The notes below the pieces were generated by a model. The model was not told the origin of the DNA, did no database searches, and saw only the letters and a program-made list of their open reading frames with translations. Position numbers and translations under genes: made by a program. Positions 7,308 through 28,808 of a DNA stretch of 44,119 nucleotides are shown here, piece after piece. The stretch is taken from positions 1 through 44,119 of IMG/VR virus record IMGVR_UViG_3300009702_000005; one strand, given 5' to 3'. This DNA is from a virus. Numbering within the stretch: the stretch's first letter is position 1; each line of letters opens with the position of its first letter.

Positions 7308-8312
7308 ATGACTACTCCCAGAAGTCTACACTATGGCGGTAGATGGGTACGCGTAAAGAATGTTTCTGGTGAGGATATTCCGCCGTATAGTGTAGTCGAG
7401 ATTACTGGTGCATCTAGCGATGATGGTATTCTCAATGCCGATAAACCATCATCTTCTGGGGATGATTATAGACACGGATTGAGTGGTCCGGCTACGATTA
7501 AATCAGGCGATCATGGGGATGTAACGTTCGACCTTCCCGCTTGGGCTTCCTTTGATTCGTCTGATGGAACTCCGGCTAATGGAGATTTATGGGGAGCTAA
7601 GAGCGGTAGTTGGAAACTCGGTAATACTGGCGACAGTAATTTTCCAGTATTAGGGAGTGTCGATACCACTAATGAAGTGATGTTGGTAGGGAGCTATTGG
7701 TCGGCTGGAAAGCCTGATGTTGAGTTGTTTGTCTCCGACTCTGATAGAGCTTACCCAGATTTTGCTGGTTCTGTACTATCTGGAAATTTCTACAATCTAA
7801 ATTTACAGTGGGATAGGGCAGGTGATGCTAGACTTCCATTAGTCGGATTGCATGGAGCAATAATTAGCCGCGATACTCCGGTTACTACTCACGATCCATT
7901 AGACTCTCCCTTTGCCTACTATACAGTGAAAAGTGCATACTGGACTCAGCCAATTATACTTGTTGGTACTACAATTTTGTACTTAGTAAGTAAAAGTACC
8001 GGATACGGAGCATACGAATGGTGGATAGGTACATATGATAGTTCATTTCCGGGCTTACTCTTTACTAAGTACAAGAAGTTACCTAACGTTTTTGATAAAA
8101 TTCTTGAAGGAAGTTCTGGATTAGCGTCACCTACGACAATAGATGATAGAGCAATACTATGGTGGACTGAGGACGCTGGATGGATAGGAATGCAGGTAGG
8201 GTATACTGGTGATAAAACAGTAATTACTAACGTGTCGGTAAATCCAGACGGCACAGTAGCATCAGTTACTACAGAGACATGGACATATAATAAAGGGATA
8301 TTACTCCCATAA
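7308..8312 (+). CDS. tail fibre / receptor-binding protein candidate, 334 aa
   Basis: Last virion-like ORF of the tail block. Called by position only. Confidence 0.35.
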   Translation: MTTPRSLHYGGRWVRVKNVSGEDIPPYSVVEITGASSDDGILNADKPSSSGDDYRHGLSGPATIKSGDHGDVTFDLPAWASFDSSDGTPANGDLWGAKSGSWKLGNTGDSNFPVLGSVDTTNEVMLVGSYWSAGKPDVELFVSDSDRAYPDFAGSVLSGNFYNLNLQWDRAGDARLPLVGLHGAIISRDTPVTTHDPLDSPFAYYTVKSAYWTQPIILVGTTILYLVSKSTGYGAYEWWIGTYDSSFPGLLFTKYKKLPNVFDKILEGSSGLASPTTIDDRAILWWTEDAGWIGMQVGYTGDKTVITNVSVNPDGTVASVTTETWTYNKGILLP

Positions 8313-10786
8313 TGAGCCACGACAGACAAACGACTACGTTTACAAAGCACGGTCCTGTTACGGTATACCATGATAGAGGATATACAGAGGGGCCGGAAAT
8401 TCTTACGCTACGGCAGCGGGTGTCAGAGACTCTTTCACGTTTCTGGCATAGGTTGGTAGGACAGAGACCGAAGCCTGTTGTGTCTGTGGCGATTCTCATA
8501 GTAGCGCGTAACAATGGCCGCTATTTGAGCGAAGCTATTGAATCCGCATTACGCCAGACTGTTAGCTGTGAGATAGTATATTATGATGATGCGTCTACAG
8601 ATAACTCTGTAGCAATAGCTGAGCAGTACATAGATAGAGGGGTATCTGTATTACGTACTAAGGTTAATCTGGGAGTGTGCGAAGCTAGAAATCGTGCTCT
8701 TACTGCTGTGCATACAGACTACGTGGTTTATCTTGACGGCGACGATAGACTCTCCAATAACTACGTAGAGAAGCATCTATCGGTTATGTCTACTGGTGTG
8801 CCGTTTGTATATGGGAAAGCTCAACGATTCGGCACAGAAACAACAAAACTGTCCCCTCCTAAAATCTTTTCGCCTACACTATGGCACGGTAACTACATCG
8901 TAGTATCTGCCTTGATTCGGAGAGAACTATTATTAGCTGTAGGGGGTTGGGTACATACCGATGGAACGGTACATGAAGACTGGCATTTATTTCTACGCCT
9001 GAGTAGGTTAGGTACTCCCCAATATAGCGGTGCAGTTTTACACTACCGAAAACATGAAACACAACGTACACAGACAAGCACAACAGAACACCTATCGGCC
9101 ATTCGGCAAAGTCTAGCTAGGATAGTAGTAGGTATAGTCTATTCTGGAAGACTACCGATAGATGTATGCCTATCTCCGTTAGCTGAGTCTATTCCCAGAA
9201 ACCGCGTAGCGGTTGTGGTATTAAACGCTAGTGGTCAATCGTTGCAGTTATCAGACTATGGCGTATTTCAATCGGTTAAGATTGTACCGTGGAAGGTGTG
9301 TGGGAAACTTAATAGAGAGATTTCTGAGTTTTTAGCTGACGCATATACCTATATCATTACGCATACTACACAAGAAATTATTTGGTTTGTTGAAGACGAC
9401 ATAGTATTGTCCAAAGAGAATTGGAATGATATGTATGCGTCTATTACGAGTAATGACATACATGCTACAGGTCTGCAATATGTTAATCGTGGCCTACCGA
9501 CTGAGCTAGTTGGGGATGGTAAACATATTGGTACAGGTTGTTTTATGATGTGGCGATATGCAGCGCCTGTATGTATAGAATGTAAGGGTGACGATTACTA
9601 TGCACACGACTGGTGGCTATGTGATTATCTTGCAAGTACTGGTAGGCCGGTTAAAATACTTGATACTATATGTGGACACGCAAAGACAGCAACGCACATA
9701 CTTAGGCATACCGGGCTTCCCATAAAGCGCTGTACTATGGTGACACAAGCAATAGCCGATGGAGGAGGCCCACGTATTACTATGGAACTAGTTATGCGCT
9801 CAACGCATGATTGGGTTGTGTTTCTAGCATCTGGTACAACTGGACAACGGGTTGATCTAATAGAGGAGTTAGAACATAGTGGAGTTGAAGTAGTATGCTA
9901 TGGGGATATAAGACTTCCACATACTACACATTTTCAATCTAAGCGTGAAGCTATTAACTATGTTACGGCTGGTAGAGATACATTAGTAGGTTGGGGACCA
10001 CCAGTTAGAGACCATGATATATTAACTGGATTTTCTGGAAGAACTATTGCAGTAGCACATGGTAGTTGTGAGCATACTCGGAAGTTAATGCAGTCCGCGC
10101 TGGCGTCTGGGTATCGGGAATTCATCGGTGTCTCGGACCCGGCTACGGCAGTTTGCCCGAATGATCGATTGGTACTTACTATTAGGAACGGGGTAACTGC
10201 TGATAGACTTGCAGTCACATCGCTAATATCACGGCAGTCTAGCAAAGTTGCTGCGTATATAGGTAGGCGTACACCAGACAAGAATCCGTTAGTCATAGCT
10301 GATGCCGTGGATTATCTACCGAAAGAATGGTCGATTTTAATGGCCGGTGACGGTCTACTACTTCCAGTTAATCGTCAACGGGTTCGATTATGTCCTGATA
10401 GAGTAGACGTAGGTAATGTATACGCATCAGTGGATGTAGTGGTGATGGCGTCTCCGAGTGAGGGATGTTCTCTGACTGTGCTAGAAGCGTGGTATCTGGG
10501 AATTCCAGTGGTATCCACGAGAGTGGGTATAATACCAGAGTTAGAAGCTATACTAGGTCCAATGGTGTTTCCGTTGCCACAAAATCCTACTCCCAGACAA
10601 ATAGCTAAAACAATACAGGAAGCGCATACAGGAGACGTGACTGAAAGAGCTAAGAACTGGACTAGGCAGTATGGTATGGTAGACCGGATGATTCAAGAAT
10701 GGGACGGTTACCTATCATGGGAGGGTAGGGCAGTTGTGCAATACTGTCATAGTGGCATGTCAGATTGGCAGAGTATGCCAGATTGA
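8312..10786 (+). CDS. multi-domain glycosyltransferase (N-terminal GT2/GT-A, a second GT-A-like segment, C-terminal GT-B/GT4-like), 824 aa
   Basis: GT2 motifs VSVAILIVARNNGRYLSEAIESALRQT, YYDDASTD and the DXD motif YLDGDD. The middle segment has WFVEDDIV. The C terminus has SPSEGCSLTVLEAWYLGIPVVSTRVGIIPE (GT-B E-x7-E type). The start overlaps the previous stop (TAATG). Confidence 0.8.
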   Translation: MSHDRQTTTFTKHGPVTVYHDRGYTEGPEILTLRQRVSETLSRFWHRLVGQRPKPVVSVAILIVARNNGRYLSEAIESALRQTVSCEIVYYDDASTDNSVAIAEQYIDRGVSVLRTKVNLGVCEARNRALTAVHTDYVVYLDGDDRLSNNYVEKHLSVMSTGVPFVYGKAQRFGTETTKLSPPKIFSPTLWHGNYIVVSALIRRELLLAVGGWVHTDGTVHEDWHLFLRLSRLGTPQYSGAVLHYRKHETQRTQTSTTEHLSAIRQSLARIVVGIVYSGRLPIDVCLSPLAESIPRNRVAVVVLNASGQSLQLSDYGVFQSVKIVPWKVCGKLNREISEFLADAYTYIITHTTQEIIWFVEDDIVLSKENWNDMYASITSNDIHATGLQYVNRGLPTELVGDGKHIGTGCFMMWRYAAPVCIECKGDDYYAHDWWLCDYLASTGRPVKILDTICGHAKTATHILRHTGLPIKRCTMVTQAIADGGGPRITMELVMRSTHDWVVFLASGTTGQRVDLIEELEHSGVEVVCYGDIRLPHTTHFQSKREAINYVTAGRDTLVGWGPPVRDHDILTGFSGRTIAVAHGSCEHTRKLMQSALASGYREFIGVSDPATAVCPNDRLVLTIRNGVTADRLAVTSLISRQSSKVAAYIGRRTPDKNPLVIADAVDYLPKEWSILMAGDGLLLPVNRQRVRLCPDRVDVGNVYASVDVVVMASPSEGCSLTVLEAWYLGIPVVSTRVGIIPELEAILGPMVFPLPQNPTPRQIAKTIQEAHTGDVTERAKNWTRQYGMVDRMIQEWDGYLSWEGRAVVQYCHSGMSDWQSMPD

Positions 10787-10810
10787 CAGTTAGTAGGTTA
10801 ATAAGCTAAT

Positions 10811-10850
10811 AAGCGTAAGTCCTTGTGAGATAGGGACTTACGCTTTTTTC
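10811..10850 (+). terminator. rho-independent terminator ending the tail/glycosyltransferase operon
   Basis: 12-bp perfect stem AAGCGTAAGTCC / GGACTTACGCTT followed by a T run. Confidence 0.85.
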
Positions 10851-11015
10851 ATGGTTTGGCATGGTAGTTGCAACCTATTAAGGCGGCAAGCAAGGAAGTC
10901 TGCTGAGAATGAAACACGCTGATAGTTGTCCGATGCTTTGGTAAGGTCCAAAGTGGCTAACATCCTGCCGGACAATTATCGGGATGTTTCACGAGAAGAG
11001 GAAGGAACAAAGAAA

Positions 11016-11192
11016 ATGAGAGAATATGGAATCTTTGACGACAGCGGCCTGCTGGAAGGTGATTTCGGTTCGCGAGAAGACGCAATGAGCGCACTGAACA
11101 ACAGATATGCGGACGACGGCGCACACGTCGGCATCGTCTGCCCCGAACATGAAGAACAGGAACAGGATTTCTGCGAAGAATGCGGTGCCTGA
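11016..11192 (+). CDS. small, very acidic hypothetical protein, 58 aa, with C-terminal CPEH..CEEC
   Basis: ATG preceded by GAGGAAGGAA. The upstream TTG-started part of the track ORF has no RBS. Sequence MREYGIFDDSGLLEGDFGSREDAMSALNNRYADDGAHVGIVCPEHEEQEQDFCEECGA. Confidence 0.55.
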   Translation: MREYGIFDDSGLLEGDFGSREDAMSALNNRYADDGAHVGIVCPEHEEQEQDFCEECGA

Positions 11193-11303
11193 GAGGTGTG
11201 GGACTGACCGGATTGTCGGGCCGCAACGAGCGGCCCGGCTACCTTGCCAGTCGGCAGGACCGGCCCGGCGAATTCCGGGCAAAAAGAGAAAGGTAGGTGA
11301 CTG

Positions 11304-11513
11304 ATGAACGCTGTTGCAACTAATGCAGGTGTCTTGGGGTACTTGATCAGTACGCGATTTGGGACCAATTTTACGTTGGCGCGTGACTGGTCCCCGGCGT
11401 ATGGTCGATCAATGGAACAGGACGGAGTTACGGTTACGTCTGTTCCCGATTCCCCAGAATGGCGTAGGCTTATAGCTGAACGCTGGCCGCAGCTTGCTGA
11501 TGAACTGTTGTAG
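11304..11513 (+). CDS. hypothetical protein, 69 aa
   Basis: ATG lies 4 nt after the GAAAGGTAGGTG junction motif (11288..11299). Confidence 0.55.
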   Translation: MNAVATNAGVLGYLISTRFGTNFTLARDWSPAYGRSMEQDGVTVTSVPDSPEWRRLIAERWPQLADELL

Positions 11514-11747
11514 GAATCTCCGACGACGGCCGCTACTATGGTAGCGGCCAGATTCGGATGTTCTATCCGAGAAAGGTAGGTAGGCTAGTTGTGGTTGCCG
11601 TGCTGGAAAAGTAAGCGGGATAATTCCTTGATAAACGAACTCATGTAGCGACTTGATTGCGGCTGTTGCTGTGGTCTTGCGTGGGAGTTGTCAGAGGATT
11701 CCAGACCCGTCACGACGACTACTATTACCAGAACAGGGGAGAAAGAA

Positions 11748-12164
11748 ATGAAAAATGCAAGTTACCGCAAACACAATGACCGCACAGATAATTCCAGTAC
11801 TTACCATAAAAAGGACGGTACAAACATCCGTGCGATCCTGAAACGTGAAGCTGAGGAAGAAATGAAAAACGCCATGACTACTACAACTACGACTGTACCG
11901 CGCTATGTGGTGCTGACAGCGGCAGCGCATATGCCCAATAGCTGTTGGGGCAGGTACGGGAAAGTTGCCGTAGTTGAAACAGACGGTAAAGGTATGCCGT
12001 GTCGAATCGACGAGCGTTTGAATTGTGTCAAGCGAATCGTAGAAATATGGGACCGCCAGAATATAGGCATAACTGACCGATGTGCCTTTGCGCGGGCAAA
12101 GCGCGAAGCTGAAGAATTGGCAAACCGTCTGAATGCTCTAGCTGAAACTGAAGGTGGTGACTAA
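11748..12164 (+). CDS. hypothetical protein, 138 aa, with an internal near-duplicate SD+ATG at 11862
   Basis: GGGGAG lies upstream of ATG 11748. The TTG at 11688 used by the ORF track lacks a properly spaced RBS. Confidence 0.5.
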   Translation: MKNASYRKHNDRTDNSSTYHKKDGTNIRAILKREAEEEMKNAMTTTTTTVPRYVVLTAAAHMPNSCWGRYGKVAVVETDGKGMPCRIDERLNCVKRIVEIWDRQNIGITDRCAFARAKREAEELANRLNALAETEGGD

Positions 12165-12484
12165 TGCAGCGCAAGCGAAAACGTCGAAAGGCACACTACA
12201 CTGAGATTGACCATTACCAAGTGTCTCCCAGAGTATCTATTAGACCGGGAGACGTAGTACGGTTCGGCGGTCGGGGAGCTACCTATCAGGGTAGTCGATT
12301 GCCGATATGCGGAAAATTCTCCGTATTGCGTGTATTGCAGACGCGCGGTGGCAAGGTGTTTCTTGATGTGTTCGGCCTTGACAAGACAGGCGGGTTTCAT
12401 ACGGTTTACGTGGATGGTAAGCCGTACTCACGGAACTGCATCAGGTGGTATCCGTACAAAGTGAAGAAAGTGAGGGAGACATGA
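12164..12484 (+). CDS. hypothetical protein with a basic N terminus (MQRKRKRRK), 106 aa
   Basis: The start overlaps the previous stop (TAATG). No family recognised. Confidence 0.5.
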   Translation: MQRKRKRRKAHYTEIDHYQVSPRVSIRPGDVVRFGGRGATYQGSRLPICGKFSVLRVLQTRGGKVFLDVFGLDKTGGFHTVYVDGKPYSRNCIRWYPYKVKKVRET

Positions 12485-12675
12485 CAGAGCGTAAAGTAGT
12501 AATGATCGACAAACAAGATGGTGCAGAGTATATTGTCCCATTTTCTGAGGCGGCAATGAAACTGCACTATGCAACCGGTAGGTCTGTAGCTGATATAACT
12601 GTAGACCTTGAAAATTTTGAACCATTGGAAACATGCTTTGCATGGTATGAACTGAAAAAGGAAGGTGAAAAATGA
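12481..12675 (+). CDS. hypothetical protein, 64 aa
   Basis: ATGA overlap with the upstream stop. GAGGGAG SD directly upstream. Confidence 0.5.
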   Translation: MTERKVVMIDKQDGAEYIVPFSEAAMKLHYATGRSVADITVDLENFEPLETCFAWYELKKEGEK

Positions 12676-12890
12676 CCCGCAAACATTTTGAAACGATAGC
12701 AAGAGCGTTGTTCCTAGCTTCTCCAGATGCGGATAACGAGCCTGTAGCTAGGTTATCATGGTGTTCACTTTGCTCTACGTTAGCTATAGTGTTCGGACAG
12801 ATAAACAGCCGATTTAATCGGGTACGATTCTTTACTACATGTGGGTTTACCCCGCAGGAAGTAGAAAGGTGGCATGATGTACTTAACTGA
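12672..12890 (+). CDS. hypothetical protein, 72 aa
   Basis: ATGA overlap with the upstream gene. GGAAGG upstream. Confidence 0.5.
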   Translation: MTRKHFETIARALFLASPDADNEPVARLSWCSLCSTLAIVFGQINSRFNRVRFFTTCGFTPQEVERWHDVLN

Positions 12891-13272
12891 TGACACAAAG
12901 GCATACTACACTAGTGATGGGAGTCAATATACCACTAGGGGGTTGTTTCTGATGCTAGTACAACCGGAAGGTATTCAAGGTAGTTCAGCGCCTATTAAGG
13001 CTGTGGTTCGTAAGGTAGCGCTACGCCAGTTAGGTCACTGGATGATGGGAAAGGCGCGCATATATGGCCACAATTTCACAGTATCCGGGGCATACGGTGG
13101 GGACGGTCTGACAATGGATGTTCCGCAGGAAGTCTATGACCGTCTACAGGTTGAGTTACCGGATTCGCTGGTAGAAGCGTGGAACAAGGGGGGCGGTTGG
13201 AATAGTGCTGGATCAGAAGCGCCAATGATTCGAGAGTGGGCGCTGGAGAATCTGGACCGTCTGAGAAAATAA
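12874..13272 (+). CDS. hypothetical protein, 132 aa
   Basis: ORF overlaps the upstream gene end by 17 nt. No family recognised. Confidence 0.5.
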   Translation: MMYLTDDTKAYYTSDGSQYTTRGLFLMLVQPEGIQGSSAPIKAVVRKVALRQLGHWMMGKARIYGHNFTVSGAYGGDGLTMDVPQEVYDRLQVELPDSLVEAWNKGGGWNSAGSEAPMIREWALENLDRLRK

Positions 13273-13275
13273 CTC

Positions 13276-13303
13276 TTGACAACTTGACCGCTACCGGTAC
13301 AAT
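13276..13303 (+). promoter_or_regulatory. sigma70-like promoter TTGACA-N16-TACAAT upstream of the methyltransferase. A 7-bp inverted repeat (CTACCGG 13291..13297 / CCGGTAG 13309..13315) flanks the -10 hexamer (13298..13303).
   Basis: Read directly: cTTGACAacttgaccgctaccggTACAATcgtttccggtag. Confidence 0.6.
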
Positions 13304-13340
13304 CGTTTCCGGTAGTGGTAGTGATAAAAGGTGGGACGAA

Positions 13341-14162
13341 ATGACCAAGCGACCATTGACCCTTACAATCGATACAGCGCCGAAATGTCAAATCTATATC
13401 GGCGATTGCCGTAGTATCATGCCGCATCTACGAGAGCAACGATTCGATTGTATCTTTGCCGATCCACCATTCAATCTTCGAGAGCCGTATAGTCAGTGGA
13501 AAAATAGTTTGTCGGCAACTGACTACCGCACTATGACTAAAGAATGGTTGTCAGAATGTGTGCGACTTCTATCTCCTACGGGTTCATTCTGGGTGAATTG
13601 CCCTAATGAAATAGCCGCTAGAATCGTAGTGCATCTGGAAGATAAGCATAAACTTATCCTAGCTGACTGGTGCATCTGGCATTACCGATTCGGGCAATGG
13701 ACAGGTAAGGGATTTATCCGGTCTCACACTAACGCTCTACATTTTGTCAAGAGCCGTAAACTTGCTATTTGGAATCCTACCGATGTACTAGTTCAATCTG
13801 ACCGTGCGACTAAATACAACGATGCACGGACCAAGACTACACGCCAACCGGGGAAGTGTGTACCGCTTGACGTATGGGGAGTAGAATCTGACGGTCCGTA
13901 TTGGGGTAGGGTACAGGGTAACAATGCTGAACGAAGACCCTTGCATCCGAAGCAACTCCCAGAAAAGTACATCGAACGTGCAATACGTGCAAGTACCAGA
14001 CCAGATAGTGTAGTGTTTACGCCGTTTGTTGGGAGTGGTACAGAGCTAACCGTTGCGCGGGCGTTGGGACTGAGAAGTGTAGGAATCGAAATTGGTGAAC
14101 GTGAAGCACGGTCTGCTCTTGATCGTATCAAGAATGGGGCTGTGCGAATCAAAGAAAGGTAG
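13341..14162 (+). CDS. beta-class amino DNA methyltransferase (N6-adenine or N4-cytosine), orphan, 273 aa
   Basis: Motif IV IFADPPFN precedes motif I FTPFVGSGTELTVARALGLRSVGIEI. No restriction enzyme partner seen. ATG 13341 chosen over the non-ATG track start at 13236. Confidence 0.85.
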   Translation: MTKRPLTLTIDTAPKCQIYIGDCRSIMPHLREQRFDCIFADPPFNLREPYSQWKNSLSATDYRTMTKEWLSECVRLLSPTGSFWVNCPNEIAARIVVHLEDKHKLILADWCIWHYRFGQWTGKGFIRSHTNALHFVKSRKLAIWNPTDVLVQSDRATKYNDARTKTTRQPGKCVPLDVWGVESDGPYWGRVQGNNAERRPLHPKQLPEKYIERAIRASTRPDSVVFTPFVGSGTELTVARALGLRSVGIEIGEREARSALDRIKNGAVRIKER

Positions 14163-14169
14163 GTGAGAC

Positions 14170-14625
14170 ATGGCTATCGTGGAAGACTACGATGTACAAC
14201 TGTTTGGTGGACTGTTTACTGAAAGTCAGTTGATAGAGTCATTGCCGCATGGTAGTGGTATTGATTGTAAGTGGACAGTTGAAGTTGCCAAGAATGGTAG
14301 TGTGGTAGCTTATAATAGCTTTCACGTGATGAATGATGTGGGATTCTATGTAGGCTACCAAGATTTCAAGGTTAAGTTGTTTGGTCGCAAGACTGATAAC
14401 ATTCATTATCTACGGGATGGACGCATTCAAATTCTTAGCCATAAAGGGGACATTGAAGTAGTCGTACAGTCTGTAGGTGGTTGGCGCAGGGATCGTGCCG
14501 CTTACGATTTGAGGGAGTATATTTGGGATACTGTTCTGTGGTCGTTGCTGGATGGTGTCTTGAAAGATCAACAGAGAAAGTCTGTCATAGTGACAGCGGA
14601 AGAATACGCTAGTATGCCACATTGA
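14170..14625 (+). CDS. hypothetical protein, 151 aa
   Basis: ATG lies 4 nt after junction motif 14154..14165, which contains the methyltransferase TAG stop. Confidence 0.55.
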   Translation: MAIVEDYDVQLFGGLFTESQLIESLPHGSGIDCKWTVEVAKNGSVVAYNSFHVMNDVGFYVGYQDFKVKLFGRKTDNIHYLRDGRIQILSHKGDIEVVVQSVGGWRRDRAAYDLREYIWDTVLWSLLDGVLKDQQRKSVIVTAEEYASMPH

Positions 14626-14736
14626 CAGGTAGGCATATTGCAGCAATCAACGTAAGTGTAGCTAGTATAATAGATTGTGTGGTTATGGGAGTTTGGCGCG
14701 GTATTAGCTACATCGTCAACTTGAAAGGGGGAGAGA

Positions 14737-14910
14737 ATGAGTAGTAAACGACGGAAAAAACGGGAGAACGTGTTGTGGCCATATGCCGCAGAATGTGAAT
14801 CTGGGGTATTTCGAGTCTTGCAAGCGTATTCGCCAAAGCATATAGTTCAGCGATTGCGAGACGAATACCAAGATAGGGCAGTTACAATCAACAAGGTTAA
14901 CGAAAGGTAG
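14737..14910 (+). CDS. small hypothetical protein, 57 aa (below the ORF-track cutoff)
   Basis: GGGGGAGAG SD then ATG. Sequence MSSKRRKKRENVLWPYAAECESGVFRVLQAYSPKHIVQRLRDEYQDRAVTINKVNER. Its TAG stop lies inside junction motif 14902..14913. Confidence 0.45.
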   Translation: MSSKRRKKRENVLWPYAAECESGVFRVLQAYSPKHIVQRLRDEYQDRAVTINKVNER

Positions 14911-14918
14911 GTGTTACA

Positions 14919-15914
14919 ATGGCGCATGAATTAACGATTCGAGAAAACGGGCTGGTTGAAGCGATGTACGCGCAAAAACCAGCATGGCATGGATTGGGAG
15001 TAGTGTTAGAAGATGCTCCTGATAGTGAAACCGCAATGCGCGAAGCTCACTTAGATACGCTGGTTGAAACGCAACCGATCTATCTGTCTGACGGGCAGGA
15101 ACTGCCAGATAACAAGGCAGTTGTCAGACTGGTTGAGGGAGAAGACCCTTACCCGCTTGGGGTGGTCGGCAATCGGTATGAATGCTATCAGAATGCAGAA
15201 GCCTTTCAATTTCTGGATTCGCTCTTGATGGATGGCGTCATGCGCTACGAAGCGGCGTTTTCGCTTCGCGGTGGTCGAAATGTCTGTCTGCTTGCACGTC
15301 TGCCGAGTATCGACTACGTGACGGACAGTGACCCGTTGTTGCGGTATCTGTTGCTGCACACATCGCACGATGGTAGTTCGGCCATTCAGGTACAGGCTAC
15401 TAGCGTGAGGGTTGTGTGTGCGAATACTCTTTCGCTCGCACTACGTGAGAAGTGTGACCGGTTCAGTGTGCGACATACTGCTAATGCAAAGCGCAATCTT
15501 GATGTGGTGCGCGAAGCGATTTCACAGTACGATACGCAATTCACGCTGCACACTGACAACTGCCGAAAGTTGTTGGCTACGGCAGCCTCAAAGGAACAGA
15601 GTAACGAATACATGAATACTCTGTTCCCAGAAGATGCTGACGCTACTACGCGACAGCAAAACAGTAGAATTCGTAAGTTTGGCGCTTTGCGCGCTGGATA
15701 CCGAAGAACAATACAGGACAATCCCGAAGCGAAGGGTACGTTCTGGGGGCTGTATAATGGTGTCTCTTGGGCTGTGGACCATTCTGACGAATTCTCGCGG
15801 TATCGTGGGACTGAACGGCAACGAAAGGAACGTCGTTTTTCGAGTCTGATTGAGGGAACTGGTAGCAAGCTGAAACACGAAGCGTTTGAATTAGCGCTTG
15901 CATCAGCGTGCTAG
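14919..15914 (+). CDS. DUF932-like (phage/plasmid-like protein) family member, 331 aa
   Basis: N-terminal MAHELTIRENGLVEAMYAQKPAWHGLG.. resembles the PWHGLG signature I recall for this family. Size is typical. Confidence 0.6.
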   Translation: MAHELTIRENGLVEAMYAQKPAWHGLGVVLEDAPDSETAMREAHLDTLVETQPIYLSDGQELPDNKAVVRLVEGEDPYPLGVVGNRYECYQNAEAFQFLDSLLMDGVMRYEAAFSLRGGRNVCLLARLPSIDYVTDSDPLLRYLLLHTSHDGSSAIQVQATSVRVVCANTLSLALREKCDRFSVRHTANAKRNLDVVREAISQYDTQFTLHTDNCRKLLATAASKEQSNEYMNTLFPEDADATTRQQNSRIRKFGALRAGYRRTIQDNPEAKGTFWGLYNGVSWAVDHSDEFSRYRGTERQRKERRFSSLIEGTGSKLKHEAFELALASAC

Positions 15915-15986
15915 GTAACTAACTGTAGCTAGTGTGGCATGGAGGCCACACATTGCTACACACACACAGGAAAGGTAGGTGTCACT

Positions 15987-16349
15987 ATGGTAGAACTGAA
16001 AGAAATTCAAGACCATGTAACCCAGAAGTCTTATCGGTGTCGGAGGTGTGGTAGGCTACACGTCATGGGTTCAAACAGTTACGGAGACTTGCCGATTTCG
16101 CCGTGCTGTGGTGCGATTGCTCAGTGTATGGACCCGCCGCCAGAGGGATATACCAAGCCGAAACTTCCTACGGCTGGTATTGCGATACTGGATAAGTCTA
16201 CCGGAGAGTTGCATATTGTGCCGCATGACGGTGCTACTGAAATGATAGCGGACATGGTACGGTTGTTCGGTGAATTGCTGCACAACGGTAACAACGATAG
16301 TGATGAATCTGAAGAATCTGACACTGACGACTTGACAGAAAGTGAGTGA
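15987..16349 (+). CDS. zinc-ribbon-like protein with an acidic Ser/Asp/Glu tail, 120 aa
   Basis: ATG lies 5 nt after junction motif 15970..15981. CRRCG...SPCCG cysteine pairs. C terminus NNDSDESEESDTDDLTESE. Confidence 0.55.
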   Translation: MVELKEIQDHVTQKSYRCRRCGRLHVMGSNSYGDLPISPCCGAIAQCMDPPPEGYTKPKLPTAGIAILDKSTGELHIVPHDGATEMIADMVRLFGELLHNGNNDSDESEESDTDDLTESE

Positions 16350-16422
16350 GTGAATAGACTCACATATCGACCGAATGGTTCGGTTGATGGTTTAGTGGTC
16401 CTAGAGTGAAAGGAACGGGATC

Positions 16423-16812
16423 ATGGGTACGGTACTGAAGAGTTTCAACTTCCCTGAACGAAGCTGGAACAGAACGGGACACGATTGGGATTCTATTGGA
16501 GACGGCAGAATCCACAAACTCGAACAAGGGGTTGACTATCATGGTCAATCCAAGAATTTTGCAAACTTGTGTCGAAGCAAGGCTGTACAACTCGGCACGA
16601 CAGCACAAACCGCCATCGTTGAAAAGGATGGTCGGGAATTTGTCGTTGTCAAGTTTGCCGTTGTTGAGTCTGAACAGTCTGGCAAGGGCAAAGGCAAGGG
16701 CAAAGGCAAAGGCAAAGGCAAGGGCAAAGCTGAGCCTCCTGAGCCGCCGTCTGACGACGATGACGACGATGATGACGACGACGATTTGTTTGACGACGAC
16801 GACGATTTCTAG
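16423..16812 (+). CDS. hypothetical protein with (GK)8, a Pro/Glu linker and a poly-Asp tail ending in Phe, 129 aa
   Basis: Sequence ..SGKGKGKGKGKGKGKGKAEPPEPPSDDDDDDDDDDDLFDDDDDF*. GAAAGGAACGGGATC precedes the ATG. Confidence 0.65.
   Translation: MGTVLKSFNFPERSWNRTGHDWDSIGDGRIHKLEQGVDYHGQSKNFANLCRSKAVQLGTTAQTAIVEKDGREFVVVKFAVVESEQSGKGKGKGKGKGKGKGKAEPPEPPSDDDDDDDDDDDLFDDDDDF
16681..16728 (+). repeat. (GGCAAR)8 hexanucleotide tandem repeat encoding (GK)8
   Basis: ggcaag ggcaaa ggcaag ggcaaa ggcaaa ggcaaa ggcaag ggcaaa. Confidence 0.95.
16753..16806 (+). repeat. GAC/GAT trinucleotide tract encoding D11-LF-D5
   Basis: Read directly from the sequence. Confidence 0.95.
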
Positions 16813-16862
16813 ACAACTGTTGTTAATTGCGTAACTTTAATAGCGCGATTAACAGCAAACGG

Positions 16863-16900
16863 ACCCGGTTGGAGAGTAATTCTCTGACCGGGTTTTTTTT
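16863..16900 (+). terminator. rho-independent terminator closing the early block. A second hairpin lies just upstream at 16821..16854.
   Basis: Stem ACCCGGT..(extended)..ACCGGGT followed by T8 (16893..16900). Confidence 0.85.
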
Positions 16901-16906
16901 CAACCC

Positions 16907-16934
16907 TTGACCCAGATTCGACAGCCGCTATAAT
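16907..16934 (+). promoter_or_regulatory. sigma70-like promoter TTGACC-N16-TATAAT for the replication/recombination operon
   Basis: cccTTGACCcagattcgacagccgcTATAATgatc, located immediately after the terminator. Confidence 0.65.
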
Positions 16935-16981
16935 GATCGACGCCGTAAACGAACCGCAAAGGAAACGCGGAGGCAAAATAC

Positions 16982-18331
16982 GTGAGAGACGACAAGGTAG
17001 GCATTCCACAATATCGCCGAGTCACTGATTATCAGCGGGCATTTCTGGCCGAAGCCGACAATTACGAGCGTGTATTCCTGCAATGGGATATGCGACTCGG
17101 AAAAACGCTCACTACTCTCAGGTGGTTCGAGCGAGCTTCCTGCAAGAGATTTCTGGTGGTCGGCCCGGCCGCAGTCTTGCATGATTGGCAGCAAGAGGCC
17201 AGTGCAGAGAACATCCCTAGCGCTATCGTGACTAGAGAAGTCACAGATGCCTATACGCTATCACTAGCGTCTATCCCTAAAGGTGTCACTCTAGTTAGTT
17301 ATGCTAGACTGTTACGCTACCCAGAAATACTTGCTAATTATTGGGATGGCATTGCCCTAGATGAATCAACTAGAATTCGCAATCCCAAAGCGAAAGCTAG
17401 CAGGCTATTAGTTTTACGTACAACACACATCCCTAGACGCATCTGCTTATCCGGTTGTCCAGCGCCGGAGTCTTCTCTTGATCTTATCCAGCAATACTTG
17501 TTCTTGTGTTGTGGTACTGTCTTAGACTGTGCGAACTATTGGCAATTTGTGAATCACTATTGCCGTCAAGTCTCACAGTATGAGTACATAATGCCGCAAG
17601 CTATTCTATCGTGTCTACAGGCTATTCCTGATGTGCTAGTGTCTACTAAGACCAAGAGACAATTAGGGTTAGCTAGTCCAGTTACATACCAGACGCGGTA
17701 CGTGGATGTTCCAGCTAATACGATGAAATCTTATCGAAGCGCCGTGAAAGATTATGCTCTCAGCGATAGGGAGACAAAGTATAGATTTGTAGTTGATACA
17801 TGGTTATCACAGTTAGCTGGTAGTGACCATAAAGATAAAGAGCTAATAAACCTATTGACCCAAGAACTATGTCACCAGCCTGTAGTAGTTTGGTTCCGAT
17901 ACAATGACGAACTTCTCCGAATCAAGAAAAAACTAGATGCTCATGGACTACAAGCACTAACTATCTATGGCAATGTCTCACATAATGACCGGGCAAAGCG
18001 TATAACAGATTTTCAGAAAGGCAATGCCCGTATCTTGTTGGTGCAGATAGCTTGTGGAAAATTTGGATTAGACTTTTCAGCGGCCGATACGATGATCTAC
18101 TTTTCTCATACCTACGAGTATGAAGCACACGCACAGTCACTAGAACGAGTACAACACATAGCTAATAAACGCAATGTTCTAGTTATAGACTTAGTATCTG
18201 CTGGAACTATCGACGAAAAAATTAGACGTGTTCTACGTGAAAAAGACGGTGCTGCTAAGTCAATCATGCAGCGTAGTTTTAAGGCTGAACTAGACAGGGA
18301 AGCACAGAAATGGCTAAGTCAAAAGGGGTAG
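16982..18331 (+). CDS. SNF2-family (Rad54-like) helicase, 449 aa (GTG start)
   Basis: Motif I DMRLGKTL, motif II ALDESTRIRNPKAK, helicase C region LLVQIACGKFGLDFSAADTMIYF. GGAGG lies 8 nt upstream of the GTG. Confidence 0.8.
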   Translation: MRDDKVGIPQYRRVTDYQRAFLAEADNYERVFLQWDMRLGKTLTTLRWFERASCKRFLVVGPAAVLHDWQQEASAENIPSAIVTREVTDAYTLSLASIPKGVTLVSYARLLRYPEILANYWDGIALDESTRIRNPKAKASRLLVLRTTHIPRRICLSGCPAPESSLDLIQQYLFLCCGTVLDCANYWQFVNHYCRQVSQYEYIMPQAILSCLQAIPDVLVSTKTKRQLGLASPVTYQTRYVDVPANTMKSYRSAVKDYALSDRETKYRFVVDTWLSQLAGSDHKDKELINLLTQELCHQPVVVWFRYNDELLRIKKKLDAHGLQALTIYGNVSHNDRAKRITDFQKGNARILLVQIACGKFGLDFSAADTMIYFSHTYEYEAHAQSLERVQHIANKRNVLVIDLVSAGTIDEKIRRVLREKDGAAKSIMQRSFKAELDREAQKWLSQKG

Positions 18332-22060: not shown

Positions 22061-22084
22061 GTCAGGTAATAGGGAGACATTCAG

Positions 22085-22321: not shown

Positions 22322-22512
22322 AGGTAGTTAGGAATAATAATAAGTATGACGACGGCGTAGTGTCACAAGCCACCATAATCATTACAGAGACCGAAGGGTA
22401 TATACGTTGTGCAGCTTTCGGTGAAGGTAATGCTCTGAAAATAGTTAAGGCACTAGACAGTATATTTGACGGTCTATGTATTCCAGAAAGGAAGGAATCT
22501 GATGAAGTCTAG
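22318..22512 (+). CDS. hypothetical protein, paralog 2 of a tandem pair, 64 aa
   Basis: See paralog 1. ATGA overlap with it. Confidence 0.55.
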   Translation: MKVVRNNNKYDDGVVSQATIIITETEGYIRCAAFGEGNALKIVKALDSIFDGLCIPERKESDEV

Positions 22513-24583
22513 GCAGCGTATAGTAGCTGTTGATACTGAAACAACAGGACTACACGTCATGCAGGGGGACCGGCCTTTCGCGGTGGGTATGTTGTGGGAT
22601 GATGGAACAGAAGAATACTATGATTGGCCGGTTGACCCATATACGCGCAAAGTATCAATTAGCACGGCAGCATATAAGCGTGTCAAGAAAGTGATGGAAG
22701 ACAAAAACACAATCAAGGTATTCCATAACGCTAATTTTGACCTGTTGATGCTACTATCAGGGTTTGGTATTGGCTTCCGTGGAAAGATAGAGTGTAGCTT
22801 AATCAAAGCTCAGGTTGTGTTGTCTGGGAGACAGTCATACAAACTAAAGGCGCTAGCACATGATCTACTTGGTATACATAATGTAGATGAAAGGGAACTG
22901 AAAGACGCTGTAAAGTCTTTGCGTAGAAATCGAAAGATTGCTAATACCTATTCATTAGGTAGTACCGTAGAGGAAGATTATTGGTTGCCTAAACATGAGG
23001 ATAACGCTAATACTTTATGCCGCAAGTATTGTCTACTTGATGTGAAGCGAACGCTATTACTGAATGCACTACTTGACAATTTAATAAAGGGTAAGAAAAA
23101 CAAGGGGATACGAAAGGTATATAGGCGTGAAATGAAGCTGCTTAAAGTATGTCTCAGGATGCAGCAAACAGGCATTAGGGTAGATATGTCGGAGATACGT
23201 AAACAAATAGATACGGCTAAAGAGACAGCACAGTTTGAATTAGAAGCGCTGCAAACATACTACAATAATATGGTAGGAAAATCAACCAAACCATTCAATC
23301 CCGGTAGTCCCACACAGGTTGCTAAATTGTTGTATGATGGAGCAGGGTTGAAGATAAAGAAACGAACAAAATCAGATAATCCGTCAACAGACATAGAAGC
23401 TCTACGACCATACTTAGACCATCCAGTAGTCATGTCGTTACTACGCTGGAAAGCAGCTAGTAAATCTACTAGCTCATTCTTCGGAAAATACCTATCGCTC
23501 GCATTAGCTGACCGCAATGGAGACTGGTATCTTTACCCAGAATTCCGTCAGAATCGGGCAATCACTGGCCGTATGAGCATGTCTGAGCCGAATCTGCAAC
23601 AAGTATCGCACGGTAAGACGGCAGCACAGAAAGGGGCCGTACCAATTTATGCCCGCCGTCCGTTCATCCCCAGAACAGGTAAGGTGTGGCTGTGCGCGGA
23701 CTACTCACAGCTTGAAGCTCGCATCTTTGCATACTTAGCGCAAGAGCCTACCATGTTGCAGGCATTCGCTGATGGCCGTGACATGCACGCTGAATGTGCT
23801 GATAAATGTTTCGGTGGACGAAGGTATTATTATTTAGGTATGCGAATACTAATGACACGTTTAGGGTTTACTGGAACAGGAAGTGACCCTAAAGCTAAGG
23901 ATGTGTTAAGACAACTAGGACTACACAAGCAGAAGAAACAACGTGTTCGTAAATGGTTAATGAAGATGCTCTATGCCCGCAATTTTTCAATAGTATCTGT
24001 TGAGCGTGAATTGTTTGGAGATAGTGTAGCACGTAATAGAGCTAAGAATATCCTATTTCTTAAAACATATGGTGGTGGAGCATATCGGGCATCGAAAGAG
24101 ATAGGGTGCAGCTACGATGAAGCTAAAGAATTACTCAGTGGATATGATACAGAATTTCCAAAACTAAAGGCTTACCAGCGTAATGTGATAGCATATGCAA
24201 AAGAGCATAGACATATCAATACACTGTATGGTCGAAGAATTACAGTACAGAATCCTTTTGTGTACAAGGGTAAGGTTGTTGATCCAGCGTACAAAGCTGT
24301 TGACTATTCAATTCAGTCTGTTGCAGCCGACCTGATAAAACTTGCAATGATTGATATTGATAAGTGGTGCCGTAGACGGAAAGACCTTGATATTAAGATG
24401 CTACTACAGGTTCACGATGAACTTATCATAGAGATAGCTGAGAATCATTGTAAGCCGGGAATTCTACGACGAATCAAAGATATAATGGAAGACTCTCACT
24501 TAGATGGAATGGTAGCTACACCAGTTGAGTTGTCGCTATGTCGTAAGACGTGGGCAGAAAAGGAAGACGTAGAATTAAACTAG
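22502..24583 (+). CDS. family A DNA polymerase with 3'-5' exonuclease domain, 693 aa
   Basis: Exo I VAVDTETTGL, Exo II FHNANFDL, Pol motif A CADYSQLEARIFAYLAQE, motif B RNRAKNILFLKTYGGG, motif C LLQVHDELIIE. Confidence 0.9.
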   Translation: MKSRQRIVAVDTETTGLHVMQGDRPFAVGMLWDDGTEEYYDWPVDPYTRKVSISTAAYKRVKKVMEDKNTIKVFHNANFDLLMLLSGFGIGFRGKIECSLIKAQVVLSGRQSYKLKALAHDLLGIHNVDERELKDAVKSLRRNRKIANTYSLGSTVEEDYWLPKHEDNANTLCRKYCLLDVKRTLLLNALLDNLIKGKKNKGIRKVYRREMKLLKVCLRMQQTGIRVDMSEIRKQIDTAKETAQFELEALQTYYNNMVGKSTKPFNPGSPTQVAKLLYDGAGLKIKKRTKSDNPSTDIEALRPYLDHPVVMSLLRWKAASKSTSSFFGKYLSLALADRNGDWYLYPEFRQNRAITGRMSMSEPNLQQVSHGKTAAQKGAVPIYARRPFIPRTGKVWLCADYSQLEARIFAYLAQEPTMLQAFADGRDMHAECADKCFGGRRYYYLGMRILMTRLGFTGTGSDPKAKDVLRQLGLHKQKKQRVRKWLMKMLYARNFSIVSVERELFGDSVARNRAKNILFLKTYGGGAYRASKEIGCSYDEAKELLSGYDTEFPKLKAYQRNVIAYAKEHRHINTLYGRRITVQNPFVYKGKVVDPAYKAVDYSIQSVAADLIKLAMIDIDKWCRRRKDLDIKMLLQVHDELIIEIAENHCKPGILRRIKDIMEDSHLDGMVATPVELSLCRKTWAEKEDVELN

Positions 24584-24654
24584 GACCGTAACTCAATGGT
24601 TAGAGTGCCGTCCTTATAAGACGGTGGTTGCGGGTTCGAGTCCCGCCGGTCCTA
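24582..24654 (+). tRNA. tRNA-Ile, anticodon UAU (reads AUA); no encoded CCA
   Basis: Manual cloverleaf: acceptor AGGACCG/CGGTCCT, D stem ACTC/GAGT, anticodon stem CCGTC/GACGG with loop CTTATAA, T arm GCGGG-TTCGAGT-CCCGC. The 5' end overlaps the polymerase TAG by 2 nt. Confidence 0.85.
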
Positions 24655-24676
24655 ATAACTATGAGAGGGGTAGACT

Positions 24677-28736: not shown

Positions 28737-28808
28737 CCCTTTCCTTCCCGTTTGCAGATTTGATTTTAGGATTTAGTAGCTACTATTGTTCTATATAGGG
28801 AGATAACT

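Follow-up and report, generated by a model that had tools for sequence, protein, structure and literature searches.

The window analysed here is a stretch of 44,119 nt from an uncultured phage (IMG/VR record IMGVR_UViG_3300009702_000005), and the contig is a circular assembly; all features given below lie on its + strand. The genes are arranged in the order terminase, portal, head, tail, and glycosyltransferase, followed by a block of small genes and then by SNF2, RuvC-like, PD-(D/E)XK, AAA_24, DUF669, and PolA genes. The block is a stretch of ~6 kb fenced by two strong terminators, and its 13 mostly unknown genes have a codon style of their own. In a first-pass annotation, it had been proposed as a candidate anti-defence island.

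The left boundary of the block is formed by the intrinsic terminator at the end of the tail/glycosyltransferase operon (10811..10850; 16-bp stem plus T-run, fold of -22.4 kcal/mol, z = -6.1), and the right transcriptional boundary is formed by another (16861..16903; 16-bp stem plus T8, z = -4.4). The genome contains three long-stem terminators of such strength, two of which flank the block, as had been annotated. The promoter reported after the right terminator was also recovered, as a near-consensus sigma70-type site (TTGACC-16-TATAAT, 11/12 matches, 16907..16934) that would drive SNF2 and the replication module. The only other near-consensus sigma70-type site in the genome (TTGACA-16-TACAAT, 11/12 matches, 13276..13303) is located immediately 5' of the methyltransferase gene g8. 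A promoter-like site (TTGACA-17-TAGACT, 10/12 matches, 16332..16360) was found upstream of g13, and four of the best six + strand sigma70-like sites of the genome fell within the block or at its edge (p ~0.004 by our own binomial estimate). The proposal that the block forms a discrete accessory unit, delimited by terminators and placed with the late (tail) operon on one side and the replication module on the other, is supported.

In the promoter scan, no sigma70-like promoter with at least 9/12 matches was detected in 10846-11020 and no recognizable promoter was found in front of g1 and g2, while the sole candidate preceding g3-g7 was a weak 9/12 site at 11595-11624. Thus, the transcription start is unexplained for half of the block. 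The leader 5' of g1 contains a long imperfect hairpin (10910..10991); the fold of 10866-11015 had a z of -4.3 and was equaled in 0 of 200 shuffles. A stable intergenic hairpin without a U-tract is present at 11514..11563 (z = -3.5), and a motif search placed a copy of the RBS motif 3' of it at 11570-11581. This motif, AAAGGTAGGTG, is specific to the block and occurs five times.

The 13 small ORFs described earlier (57 to 331 aa) correspond to the genes called in the ENA annotation. For every one of them, the called frame was the best of six under a codon model built from the rest of the genome, and all 13 are coding. As anticipated, most lack a recognizable family (11 of the 13 match no protein-family library) and several are very acidic, with a pI of 4.05 for g1 and of 4.6-4.8 for g2, g5, g12, and g13. 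Homologs of g1-g7, g9, g10, g12, and g13 were absent from 72,556 plasmids and 50,697 phage records. The g1 product (11016..11192, 58 aa) ends in a CPEH...CEEC zinc-knuckle-like motif, and g2 (11304..11513, 69 aa, pI 4.8) is preceded by the RBS motif AGAAAGGTAGGTG. The g3 product (11748..12164; 138 aa, or 158 aa from a TTG at 11688) is basic with a Thr-rich linker, and that of g4 (12164..12484, 106 aa, pI 10.6) starts with MQRKRKRRK and, judging from its charge, probably binds nucleic acid. Next come the acidic g5 (12481..12675; 64 aa, or 76 aa from a GTG at 12445), g6 (12672..12890, 72 aa), which weakly matches phrog_19432 of unknown function (E = 4e-5), and g7 (12874..13272, 132 aa). Beyond the methyltransferase gene lie g9 (14170..14625, 151 aa), with the RBS motif in front, and g10 (14737..14910, 57 aa, pI 10.0), with an N-terminal MSSKRRKKR. 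None of g1-g5, g7, g9, and g10 belongs to a known family. The g12 product (15987..16349; 120 aa, or 136 aa from 15939) combines a CxxC...CC...C zinc-ribbon-like motif with an acidic C-terminal tail; its gene has the RBS motif at 15969-15980, and the protein weakly matches phrog_6417 (E = 0.0045).

The orphan DNA methyltransferase recognized in the first-pass annotation was confirmed as g8 (13341..14162, 273 aa), a beta-class enzyme with a Pfam N6_N4_Mtase domain (PF01555, 9e-40; phrog_67). Its DPPF motif occupies residues 41-44, and an FVGSG lies close to the C-terminus. No nuclease partner was found among the adjoining genes by Pfam. The protein shares the PF01555 domain and the DPPF catalytic motif with its PDB relatives 8urk, M.RsrI, CcrM, and M.MboIIA (1e-21 to 1e-15), and it resembles beta-class orphan phage methyltransferases in having motif IV ahead of motif I and no cognate nuclease. 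It is distinct from the other deposited phage methyltransferases, to which it is at most 30% identical. The anti-restriction role of orphan methyltransferases (METHYLTRANSFERASE) is summarized in PMC11541004; as judged from family membership, g8 is the sole gene of the block with a recognizable role of this kind, established for its class. CCWGG is missing altogether from the genome, as are 25 of the 64 six-bp palindromes. In the block, the observed/expected ratio of six-bp palindromes was 0.47 (z = -5.4), compared with 0.21-0.49 in the other modules, CCWGG was seen 0 times versus 7.7 expected, and GATC had a ratio of 0.54. This extreme restriction-site avoidance indicates that restriction-modification pressure on the phage is real.

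The g11 product (14919..15914, 331 aa) is a DUF932/TIGR03299 protein (PF06067, 5e-50; phrog_1221), in agreement with its first labeling. The closest of its 2433 homologs is 52% identical, and there are 40 uncharacterized viral matches. An enzyme-like set of invariant polar residues (R70, E111, D138, R164, C167, N169, H186, and D287) suggests that g11 is probably an enzyme. The AF2 model was confident (pLDDT 94.5), and no solved structural relative was found for it in the PDB. Phage records contained the DUF932 subfamily of g11 about six times as often as plasmids did, and among the 118 plasmids in which it occurred, only 18 were conjugative. DUF932 was found repeatedly within small-ORF arrays. 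In the actinophages Gordonia phage NHagos and Mycobacterium phage Laurie, for example, DUF932 (29-31% identical) sits in an array of small hypothetical genes sharing one orientation, as it does here. Unlike the block, these two arrays begin at a distance of 115-165 nt from a defined end of the genome and run inward; their adjoining ORFs are unrelated to those of the block, and the stretches examined contain no adjacent methyltransferase gene.

The last gene, g13 (16423..16812), encodes a protein in which a (GK)7 linker joins an ~80-aa domain to a poly-Asp tail. The SSB-tail-like C terminus ascribed to it was upheld in part: the tail is acidic and ends in DDDLFDDDDDF, but the Pro of the canonical SSB tip is missing. 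An assignment of g13 as an SSB was rejected, as AF2 predicted a beta-alpha-beta-beta core (pLDDT 85-96) with a disordered tail rather than an OB fold. A fold search with the model gave no match, nor did Pfam or PDB searches, and ~32 genuine relatives were found among 1.84 billion representatives. The ~80-aa domain of g13 is new.

The GC content of the block (10851-17220) was 0.4885, versus 0.448 in the remaining genome, and the richest window of 6370 nt genome-wide begins at 10882. By unbiased two-change-point likelihood segmentation, the single best GC-rich segment was 11041-17230 (0.490 versus 0.448; LLR 18.8; left support 9941-11171, right support 17100-17600), nearly the limits first drawn by eye. 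The left step is sharp and coincides with the terminator. The right boundary lies ~250 nt within the SNF2 gene (GC-rich 5' end, 16982..17230; SNF2 by Pfam) rather than at the terminator, a spillover that had been described correctly. GC values of 0.48-0.49 were also reached by patches at 26.0-27.5, 29.5-33.5, and 39.0-42.5 kb. The excess in the block arises because third codon positions differ (GC3 of 0.461, compared with 0.32 in tail genes and 0.42 in replication genes).

CTG, TTG, ATC, and GAA were used more often in the block, and TTA, CTA, ATA, and AGA less often. The shift fell mainly on Leu (p = 1e-15), Ile (4e-4), Arg (0.005), and Glu (3e-4), and six amino-acid families were unchanged. 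ATA was reduced to 18 of 71 Ile codons (25%), versus 42% elsewhere, so the earlier description of "almost no ATA" was overstated. The ATA share was lower still in the head module, at 9% of Ile codons. The block shift correlated with that of the head module (r = 0.52, p = 2e-5; r = 0.48 after removal of the GC3 effect), a correlation reached by 2.6% of random gene sets. A GC excess that is codon-specific and follows the same axis as the capsid module suggests translational selection, with the "host-preferred codons" inferred from this internal comparison alone. The selection model fails to predict the tail tube gene, which is presumably highly expressed yet ATA-rich (9 of 17 Ile codons). Among related loci, the shift was not general: GC3 was higher upstream of SNF2 in 16 of 36 (p = 0.87), a comparison in which the ORF caller was unreliable for GC-rich genomes. 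As reported previously (PMC5683454), about half of the phages studied differ in codon usage between their early and late genes.

Two known systems are similar in layout. The early (class I-type) region of T7 runs from gene 0.3 (ocr) to 1.3 and is closed by the terminator TE. Like it, the block consists of small accessory genes that are closed off by a terminator and precede DNA-metabolism genes; host-type promoters and structured intergenic hairpins occur in both, and an anti-restriction function is predicted for the block as well. Unlike it, the block lacks an Ocr homolog, a phage RNA polymerase, and a kinase, its strongest promoter is internal (13276) instead of at the left edge, and its anti-restriction activity would rely on a methyltransferase rather than a DNA mimic. 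The anti-defence islands of plasmid leading regions (Samuel & Burstein 2024, PMC11541004; Shaw et al. 2026, PMC13478746) likewise comprise co-directional small genes, including an orphan DNA methyltransferase, adjoin replication/establishment functions, and differ from the rest of their element in a higher GC content and a codon shift. In contrast to these islands, the block has no oriT, relaxase, or ssDNA (Frpo-type) promoter and no ArdA, KlcA, PsiB, anti-CRISPR, or true SSB, and the element itself is a dsDNA phage. Since the 11 unannotated ORFs have no plasmid homologs and the DUF932 subfamily of g11 is commoner in phage records than in plasmids, the leading-region analogy drawn in the first-pass annotation is weak at the gene level.

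We consider it moderately probable that the block is a pre-replicative ("early-type") accessory module native to the phage and not an imported island; our verdict is an ordinary early-type accessory module belonging to a novel phage lineage. In agreement with this reading, arrays of smaller ORFs 5' of SNF2 are general among relatives, being present at 30 of the 36 related viral loci compared (p = 1e-5). A dedicated anti-defence island, in which most of the 13 genes inhibit host immunity (restriction-modification, BREX, Abi, CBASS, or others) and are clustered and expressed first, like plasmid leading regions or the T7 gene 0.3 region, seems unlikely to us. The terminator-bounded unit, the orphan methyltransferase, and the extreme restriction pressure fit this proposal, several small, very acidic proteins could mimic DNA, and a poly-Asp tail is present as well. 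In addition, the genes are confined to the lineage and seem to evolve fast, which is typical of anti-defence genes. Leading regions are moreover GC-rich and codon-adapted (PMC13478746) and enriched in orphan methyltransferases and SSBs (PMC11541004). However, searches of Pfam, PHROGs, NCBIfam, and PADLOC linked none of the 12 proteins other than the methyltransferase to a known family of anti-defence or defence proteins. The g13 product is no SSB, and DUF932 has no known function; one hint links a plasmid-borne DUF932 experimentally to phage-infection outcome, possibly as defence and not counter-defence. Genes for host takeover and regulation are found in early phage regions, too. That the block holds such generic genes, with no particular link to defence, is possible though doubtful; they would be small regulators binding DNA or RNA, proteins that inhibit transcription, replication, or division of the host, or replication accessory factors. 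The strongly basic g4 and g10, the zinc-ribbon-like g1 and g12, and the small-ORF arrays that precede the replication genes in relatives are consistent with it. The tails of T7 gp2.5 and gp4 dock on the phage replisome, and the acidic, Phe-terminal tail of g13, encoded immediately 5' of the replication operon, could do the same. Nevertheless, Pfam and other profile searches detected neither an HTH nor any other regulator domain in the block proteins, no ORF is homologous to known takeover proteins, and the methyltransferase together with the restriction-avoidance signature shows that defence evasion matters to this phage.

Import of the block as a unit from a GC-richer phage or mobile element whose composition was kept is quite improbable. 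The sharp GC step at the left terminator, the wide mobility of the DUF932 and methyltransferase families, the mosaic of GC-richer and GC-poorer modules across the whole genome, and the database relatives of DUF932 (best 52%), nearer than those of core genes (25-38%), would agree with such an origin. Yet palindrome, CCWGG, and GATC avoidance equals that of every other module, and the shift is codon-specific, with Glu reversed against the GC trend (GAA 0.78 in the block versus 0.60), instead of a uniform GC3 drift; the block is for these reasons not regarded as foreign, and its composition does not support such an origin. The dinucleotide signature is ordinary and within the genome's range, the shift remains when the methyltransferase and DUF932 are left out (GC3 0.465), the GC-rich segment reaches 250 nt into the conserved SNF2 gene, and no integrase, att-like repeat, or flanking tRNA was found. 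An old transfer from a phage infecting the same host population is a possible variant.

As an early-type module of the phage itself, at least the methyltransferase-to-g13 unit would be transcribed by host RNA polymerase early in infection. The methyltransferase would then modify phage DNA, allowing progeny to escape host restriction enzymes and complementing the genome-wide loss of restriction sites. DUF932 and the small proteins of acidic, zinc-ribbon, or basic type would help to establish infection by acting on the nucleic-acid machinery of host or phage, and some of all these proteins may counter host defences. The GC excess would stem from selection on particular codons, as genes that need fast or abundant translation from the host tRNA pool would avoid slow codons, with the capsid module shifting in the same way. 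The ATA-rich tail and replication genes could draw on the phage tRNA-Ile(UAU), which reads ATA and is located outside the block (24581..24655; ARAGORN; Rfam tRNA, 73 bits).

The block at 10851-17220, a run of 13 plus-strand ORFs (g1 to g13), has a GC content of 0.4885 versus 0.448 elsewhere, and the maximum-GC window of 6370 nt begins at 10882. A two-change-point likelihood segmentation, run independently of the first-pass annotation that had singled out this region, returned 11041-17230 (LLR 18.8), with support intervals of 9941-11171 on the left and 17100-17600 on the right. Both the compositional distinctness and the proposed coordinates were thus reproduced, including the spill of about 250 nt into the SNF2 helicase gene that starts at 16982, and the computed GC and codon profile contained the predicted discontinuity, GC3 also being higher in the block. 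The description of the block as clearly GC-richer than the rest of the genome holds for the block itself, but three other patches also reach a GC of 0.48-0.49. The terminators said to bound it, at 10811 and 16861, were recovered as 16-bp stems with T-runs (z = -6.1 and -4.4), and only three terminators of this type occur genome-wide (10811, 16861, and 22013). The promoter annotated at the right edge (TTGACC-16-TATAAT, 16907-16934) is indeed one of only two sites in the genome that match at 11 of 12 positions. All 13 ORFs were upheld: the ENA gene calls agree, each ORF has an SD-like site, and, with a codon model built from the remainder of the genome, the called frame was the best of six for every ORF.

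The first 123 nt of the window recur at its end and the source is a 44,135-bp MEGAHIT k141 assembly (ENA ERZ27249683), which makes the window a single complete phage genome, circularly assembled, of approximately 43,996 bp. All genes lie on the plus strand. From packaging to tail, the order is large terminase (32.8 kb), portal, head genes, and tail tube and other tail genes (0.2-8.3 kb). Between the tail genes and the block lies a gene for an 824-aa GT2+GT4 glycosyltransferase (8312-10786). This fusion protein is the last gene product of the tail operon, its gene abuts the left terminator of the block, and its substrates could be virion proteins, the host surface, or DNA. To the right of the block are the SNF2 helicase, a RuvC-like resolvase, a PD-(D/E)XK nuclease, AAA_24, and DUF669, followed by DNA polymerase A (PolA), tRNA-Ile(UAU), and primase. 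The lineage is very isolated: PolA is only 25-27% identical to any deposited phage, and the closest relatives of SNF2 among 5.8 billion proteins are 36-38% identical. The block had no megablast match in phage records, and the relatives of its methyltransferase and DUF932 protein pointed to no consistent host taxon. In a distant relative on a 68.7-kb contig (locus L005, 20033-21443), the DNA polymerase A gene carries an intein (Pfam Intein_splicing).

The GC excess of the block is an excess of GC3, GC1 and GC2 being ordinary, and the underlying codon shift is not uniform but concentrated in Leu, Ile, Arg, and Glu. For Leu (p = 1e-15), the block uses more CTG (0.31 versus 0.10) and TTG (0.31 versus 0.16) and less TTA (0.07 versus 0.24) and CTA (0.11 versus 0.25) than the rest of the genome. 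ATC is higher and ATA lower for Ile (p = 4e-4), AGA is lower for Arg (p = 0.005), and Glu moves against the GC trend, with GAA at 0.78 versus 0.60 (p = 3e-4). Codon use for Phe, His, Lys, Gly, Ser, and Gln is unchanged. The shift persists (GC3 of 0.465) when the methyltransferase and DUF932 genes, which are widely mobile, are left out. The earlier remark that the block has almost no ATA was an overstatement, since ATA accounts for 25% of its Ile codons versus 42% elsewhere and is rarer still in the head module (9%); the share is 52% in the tail module and 41% in the replication module, and the packaging module falls within 41-52%.

Relative to the remaining genes, the block and the head module, the latter including the major capsid gene, deviate in a correlated manner (r = 0.52, p = 2e-5). 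The correlation, 0.48 after removal of the mean GC3 effect, is reached by only 2.6% of random gene sets. Read most economically, the shift reflects selection for codons well translated by the host in genes needed fast or in bulk. The phage tRNA-Ile(UAU), which reads ATA and is encoded at 24581-24655 directly after the PolA gene, would then serve the ATA-rich tail and replication genes. This suggests that the accessory and capsid genes are tuned to the host tRNA pool, while ATA is read by a tRNA that the phage supplies itself; the tail tube gene, which is ATA-rich, runs counter to this model. Early and late genes differ in codon usage in roughly half of the phages examined (PMC5683454), and the shift in the block matches this. 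Plasmid leading regions are GC-rich and codon-adapted (PMC13478746; Shaw et al. 2026), and the GC and GC3 of the block, raised relative to the other genes of this genome, would fit that pattern.

Two relatives with proper gene calls share the codon shift (L005, p = 7e-7; L003, p = 8e-4). As a general trait of small-ORF arrays upstream of SNF2, the GC3/TTA shift was rejected on 36-48 IMG/VR loci, drawn from 80 SNF2 loci that an alignment-based scan recovered and a single-protein pattern scan missed altogether. GC3 was higher upstream of SNF2 in 16 of 36 related loci (p = 0.87), a negative that is provisional because the simple ORF caller mis-frames GC-rich genomes. The only general trait was smaller ORF size upstream of SNF2 (30 of 36 loci, p = 1e-5).

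Compositional distinctness can be separated from foreign origin by restriction-site avoidance, which, measured per module, serves as an internal clock for residency and marks the block as native. CCWGG is absent from the whole window, in which 45-61 copies are expected. Six-base-pair palindromes number 278 against 641 expected, and 25 of the 64 are absent, compared with 1.3% of non-palindromic hexamers; GATC is found at 70 sites where 162 are expected. Among non-palindromic words, depletion is strongest for CCCAGC, ACTGGG, CTCTTC, CTCAAG, and CACTGC, which we take to resemble type IIS sites. This avoidance signature is among the strongest one can see and, read from sequence, shows restriction to be a dominant selective force on this phage. 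When depletion was measured by module against dinucleotide-preserving shuffles, it was common to all modules, the block included: the observed/expected ratio for six-base-pair palindromes was 0.47 in the block (z = -5.4) versus 0.21-0.49 in the others, CCWGG was absent from the block against 7.7 expected, and the ratio for GATC was 0.54. The dinucleotide distance of the block lies inside the range of the genome and is no outlier.

A horizontally acquired island would be compositionally distinct, as the block is, but the block keeps the site avoidance of the genome, has an ordinary dinucleotide signature, and is without mobility hallmarks; neither integrase or transposase domains nor flanking repeats were found at the block, and the sole tRNA gene is 7.7 kb away. 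A recent import from outside the restriction environment of the phage is unlikely, because both the avoidance and the dinucleotide signature match the genome. A much older transfer, from another phage of the same host population, is conceivable. The block is best described as a native, pre-replicative accessory module of the phage. In kind, it is the early/accessory region to be expected in a tailed phage; this one belongs to an uncultured lineage that is very divergent.

Transcription signals are clustered in this module. The second 11/12 promoter of the genome (TTGACA-16-TACAAT, 13276-13303) lies in the block, just upstream of the start of g8 at 13341. Six sigma70-like sites on the plus strand match at 10 or more of 12 positions genome-wide, and four of them (12506, 13276, 16332, and 16907) fall in or at the edge of the block (p of about 0.004 by our binomial estimate). 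The clearest unit we infer would run from the promoter at 13276 through g8, g9, g10, the DUF932 gene, g12, and g13 to the terminator at 16861. No convincing sigma70-type promoter was found upstream of g1 or g2. On this left side, the leader and the next two intergenic regions are occupied by stable, GC-rich hairpins without U-tracts (10910-10991, 11215-11280, and 11514-11563; z = -4.3, -2.4, and -3.5). They look more like elements for processing or stability than like terminators; mRNA processing or stability and the binding of a regulator are possible roles.

The RBS motif AAAGGTAGGTG occurs in five copies, all in the block (11287, 11570, 14153, 14901, and 15969), and the motif ATAGGGAGA precedes several genes elsewhere, including the capsid gene (22069, 28795, 40770, and 42030), so that the genome has two RBS "dialects," one within and one outside the block. 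Downstream of the AAAGGTAGGTG copy at 11570 there is only a micro-ORF (7-19 codons). The region from the terminator at 22013 to PolA contains a segment of about 240 nt that is tandemly duplicated within 22068-22469 (22068-22110 versus 22301-22343, 79% identical; 22116-22227 versus 22358-22469, 77%), and both copies open with ATAGGGAGA and a small ORF.

The orphan DNA methyltransferase reported in the block was confirmed. g8 (13341-14162, plus strand) encodes a beta-class DNA methyltransferase that matches PF01555 (E = 9e-40) at 137.4 bits, above the curated cut-off of 26.7, and its PDB relatives are M.RsrI, CcrM, M.MboIIA, and 8urk. In the sequence, DPPF (residues 41-44) is N-terminal and FVGSG lies near the C-terminus, so that the catalytic (D/S)PP(Y/F) motif precedes the FxGxG AdoMet motif, the order that marks beta-class N6-adenine/N4-cytosine methyltransferases. 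Its neighbors g7 and g9 contain no nuclease domain, and the only nucleases found are the RuvC-like and PD-(D/E)XK recombination genes, 4-5 kb away; g8 is thus an orphan, with no cognate restriction endonuclease adjacent. No deposited phage methyltransferase is more than 30% identical to it. Since its class has an established anti-restriction role, one gene of the block is in such a class.

The DUF932-like protein was also substantiated: g11 (14919-15914, plus strand) is a full-length DUF932/TIGR03299 protein that matches PF06067 over profile positions 1-222 of 227 (170.8 bits). With 2433 homologs at E < 1e-10, the best 52% identical, it is much nearer to its relatives than the core genes of the phage are to theirs. 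Eleven columns are invariant across 120 DUF932 homologs, among them W23, R70, E111, D138, R164, C167, N169, H186, and D287, and the invariant polar residues suggest an enzyme. The AlphaFold2 model is confident (pLDDT 94.5, pTM 0.85) and matched no solved structure (best E of 0.12, TM of about 0.14); its 40 viral structural matches are all uncharacterized, and a fold-derived function was dropped. We found no paper assigning a function to DUF932, although a preprint describes a plasmid-borne DUF932 gene of Variovorax that mutated recurrently after phage exposure.

The subfamily of g11 is found in 527 phage records versus 118 plasmids, 18 of them conjugative. Among the loci that carry it, DUF932 lies within long arrays of tiny same-strand ORFs in two (L007 and L009). 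Its neighbors in L008 are methyltransferases of the Dam-like and MT-A70 types, RusA, and a PD-(D/E)XK nuclease, and in L010 it belongs to a chromosomal island that also encodes an integrase, a transposase, and a TacAT toxin-antitoxin pair. In Gordonia phage NHagos (L092, 2031-3038), it comes seventh in an array of small hypothetical genes that is read inward, and in Mycobacterium phage Laurie (L093, 2276-3346), it is likewise seventh in an inward-read small-ORF array; the arrays begin 115-165 nt from the right genome end, and the ends of these actinophages are defined. Further phage DUF932 matches also lie 1-3 kb from the right end. DUF932 could be a widespread establishment enzyme of mobile elements, acting early against host immunity.

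The protein described as having an SSB-tail-like C-terminus, g13, ends in (GK)7-AEPPEPPS-D11-LF-D5-F. The likeness stands insofar as the tail is acidic and ends in Phe, as does the SSB tip (D-D-D-I/L-P-F), but the Pro is lacking and the protein is not an SSB. When its first 86 residues were used in an exhaustive HMMER search of 1.84 billion representative proteins, about 32 genuine relatives emerged, mostly stand-alone and of 78-125 aa, with W22, G28, G36, and D38 invariant. The tail architecture recurs in one of the 32 (P0242), which has a Lys-rich linker and an acidic tip ending in DSDDF. The family has no relative in Pfam or PDB. AlphaFold2 predicted a small beta-alpha-beta-beta core (pLDDT 85-96) with a disordered tail, and Foldseek returned no match to the model. 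A second SSB was ruled out by this fold, which is not OB, and Pfam, PDB sequences, and Foldseek likewise gave no match to an SSB or an OB domain. The C-terminal tip of the phage's own SSB-like protein, DUF669, does not match the g13 tail. g13 may found an undescribed domain family of about 80 aa. Its poly-Asp tail could be a mimic of DNA or of the C-terminal tip of SSB, and host SSB partners (RecQ, ExoI, PriA, and similar), or the defense sensors that monitor them, might be titrated by it. That g13 and DUF932 should both represent new biology is a long shot; if it were true for either, the block would be a functional anti-defense island of unknown parts.

Besides g8 and g11, the block encodes eleven proteins of 57-151 aa. 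None had a significant match in Pfam, PHROGs, NCBIfam, or PADLOC, except that g6 matched one PHROGs family of unknown function. Queried by tblastn as one concatenated sequence against 50,697 phage records and 72,556 plasmids, the eleven ORFs gave only spurious matches spanning segment junctions and hence no homolog, and none was found in the small-ORF arrays of related loci. The first-pass annotation had noted very acidic small proteins, and these are present: g1 (58 aa, with a CPEH...CEEC motif) has a pI of 4.05, and g12, which has zinc-ribbon-like cysteines, and g13 carry acidic tails. g4 and g10 are strongly basic, with Arg/Lys-rich N-termini.

The same annotation had proposed an anti-defense island. 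If an island is taken to comprise at least two recognized anti-defense genes side by side, the block holds only the methyltransferase; the other 12 proteins matched no anti-defense family in Pfam, PHROGs, or NCBIfam. PADLOC and NCBIfam gave nothing significant, and the folds predicted for g11 and g13 matched no characterized structure. The likeness to plasmid leading regions did not extend to gene content, since eleven ORFs are without a plasmid homolog, and g13, despite its tail, is no SSB. To call the whole block an anti-defense island therefore exceeds the evidence, and the idea is a reasonable hypothesis rather than a finding. The concrete candidates are the orphan methyltransferase, the DUF932 protein without a solved structural relative, and the new poly-Asp-tailed small domain of g13.

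Outside the block, the major capsid gene (40786-41985) is broken by one in-frame TAA at 41302-41304. With the stop read through, the 399-aa product aligns along the full length of Phage_capsid_4 (positions 7-261 of 262, 64.5 bits), and the N-terminal ORF alone scores 22 bits. With TAA closing 13 of 50 tabulated ORFs, a code-wide reassignment of this codon is unlikely. The stop could reflect programmed read-through, a defective variant, or an error in assembly, and no other copy of it was found in viral contigs of IMG/VR. The portal ORF (34388-37702) is unusually long (1104 aa), and the portal match is limited to residues 84-527. A 71-nt repeat within the C-terminal part of this ORF (36068-36138 versus 37019-37089, 85% identical) points to a repeated extension domain. 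Two large ORF-free stretches upstream of the packaging genes, 28401-28808 (408 nt) and 30844-31426 (583 nt), sit in a GC-rich patch at 29.5-33.5 kb (GC of 0.48) and are candidates for an origin, a pac/cos site, or a regulatory RNA.
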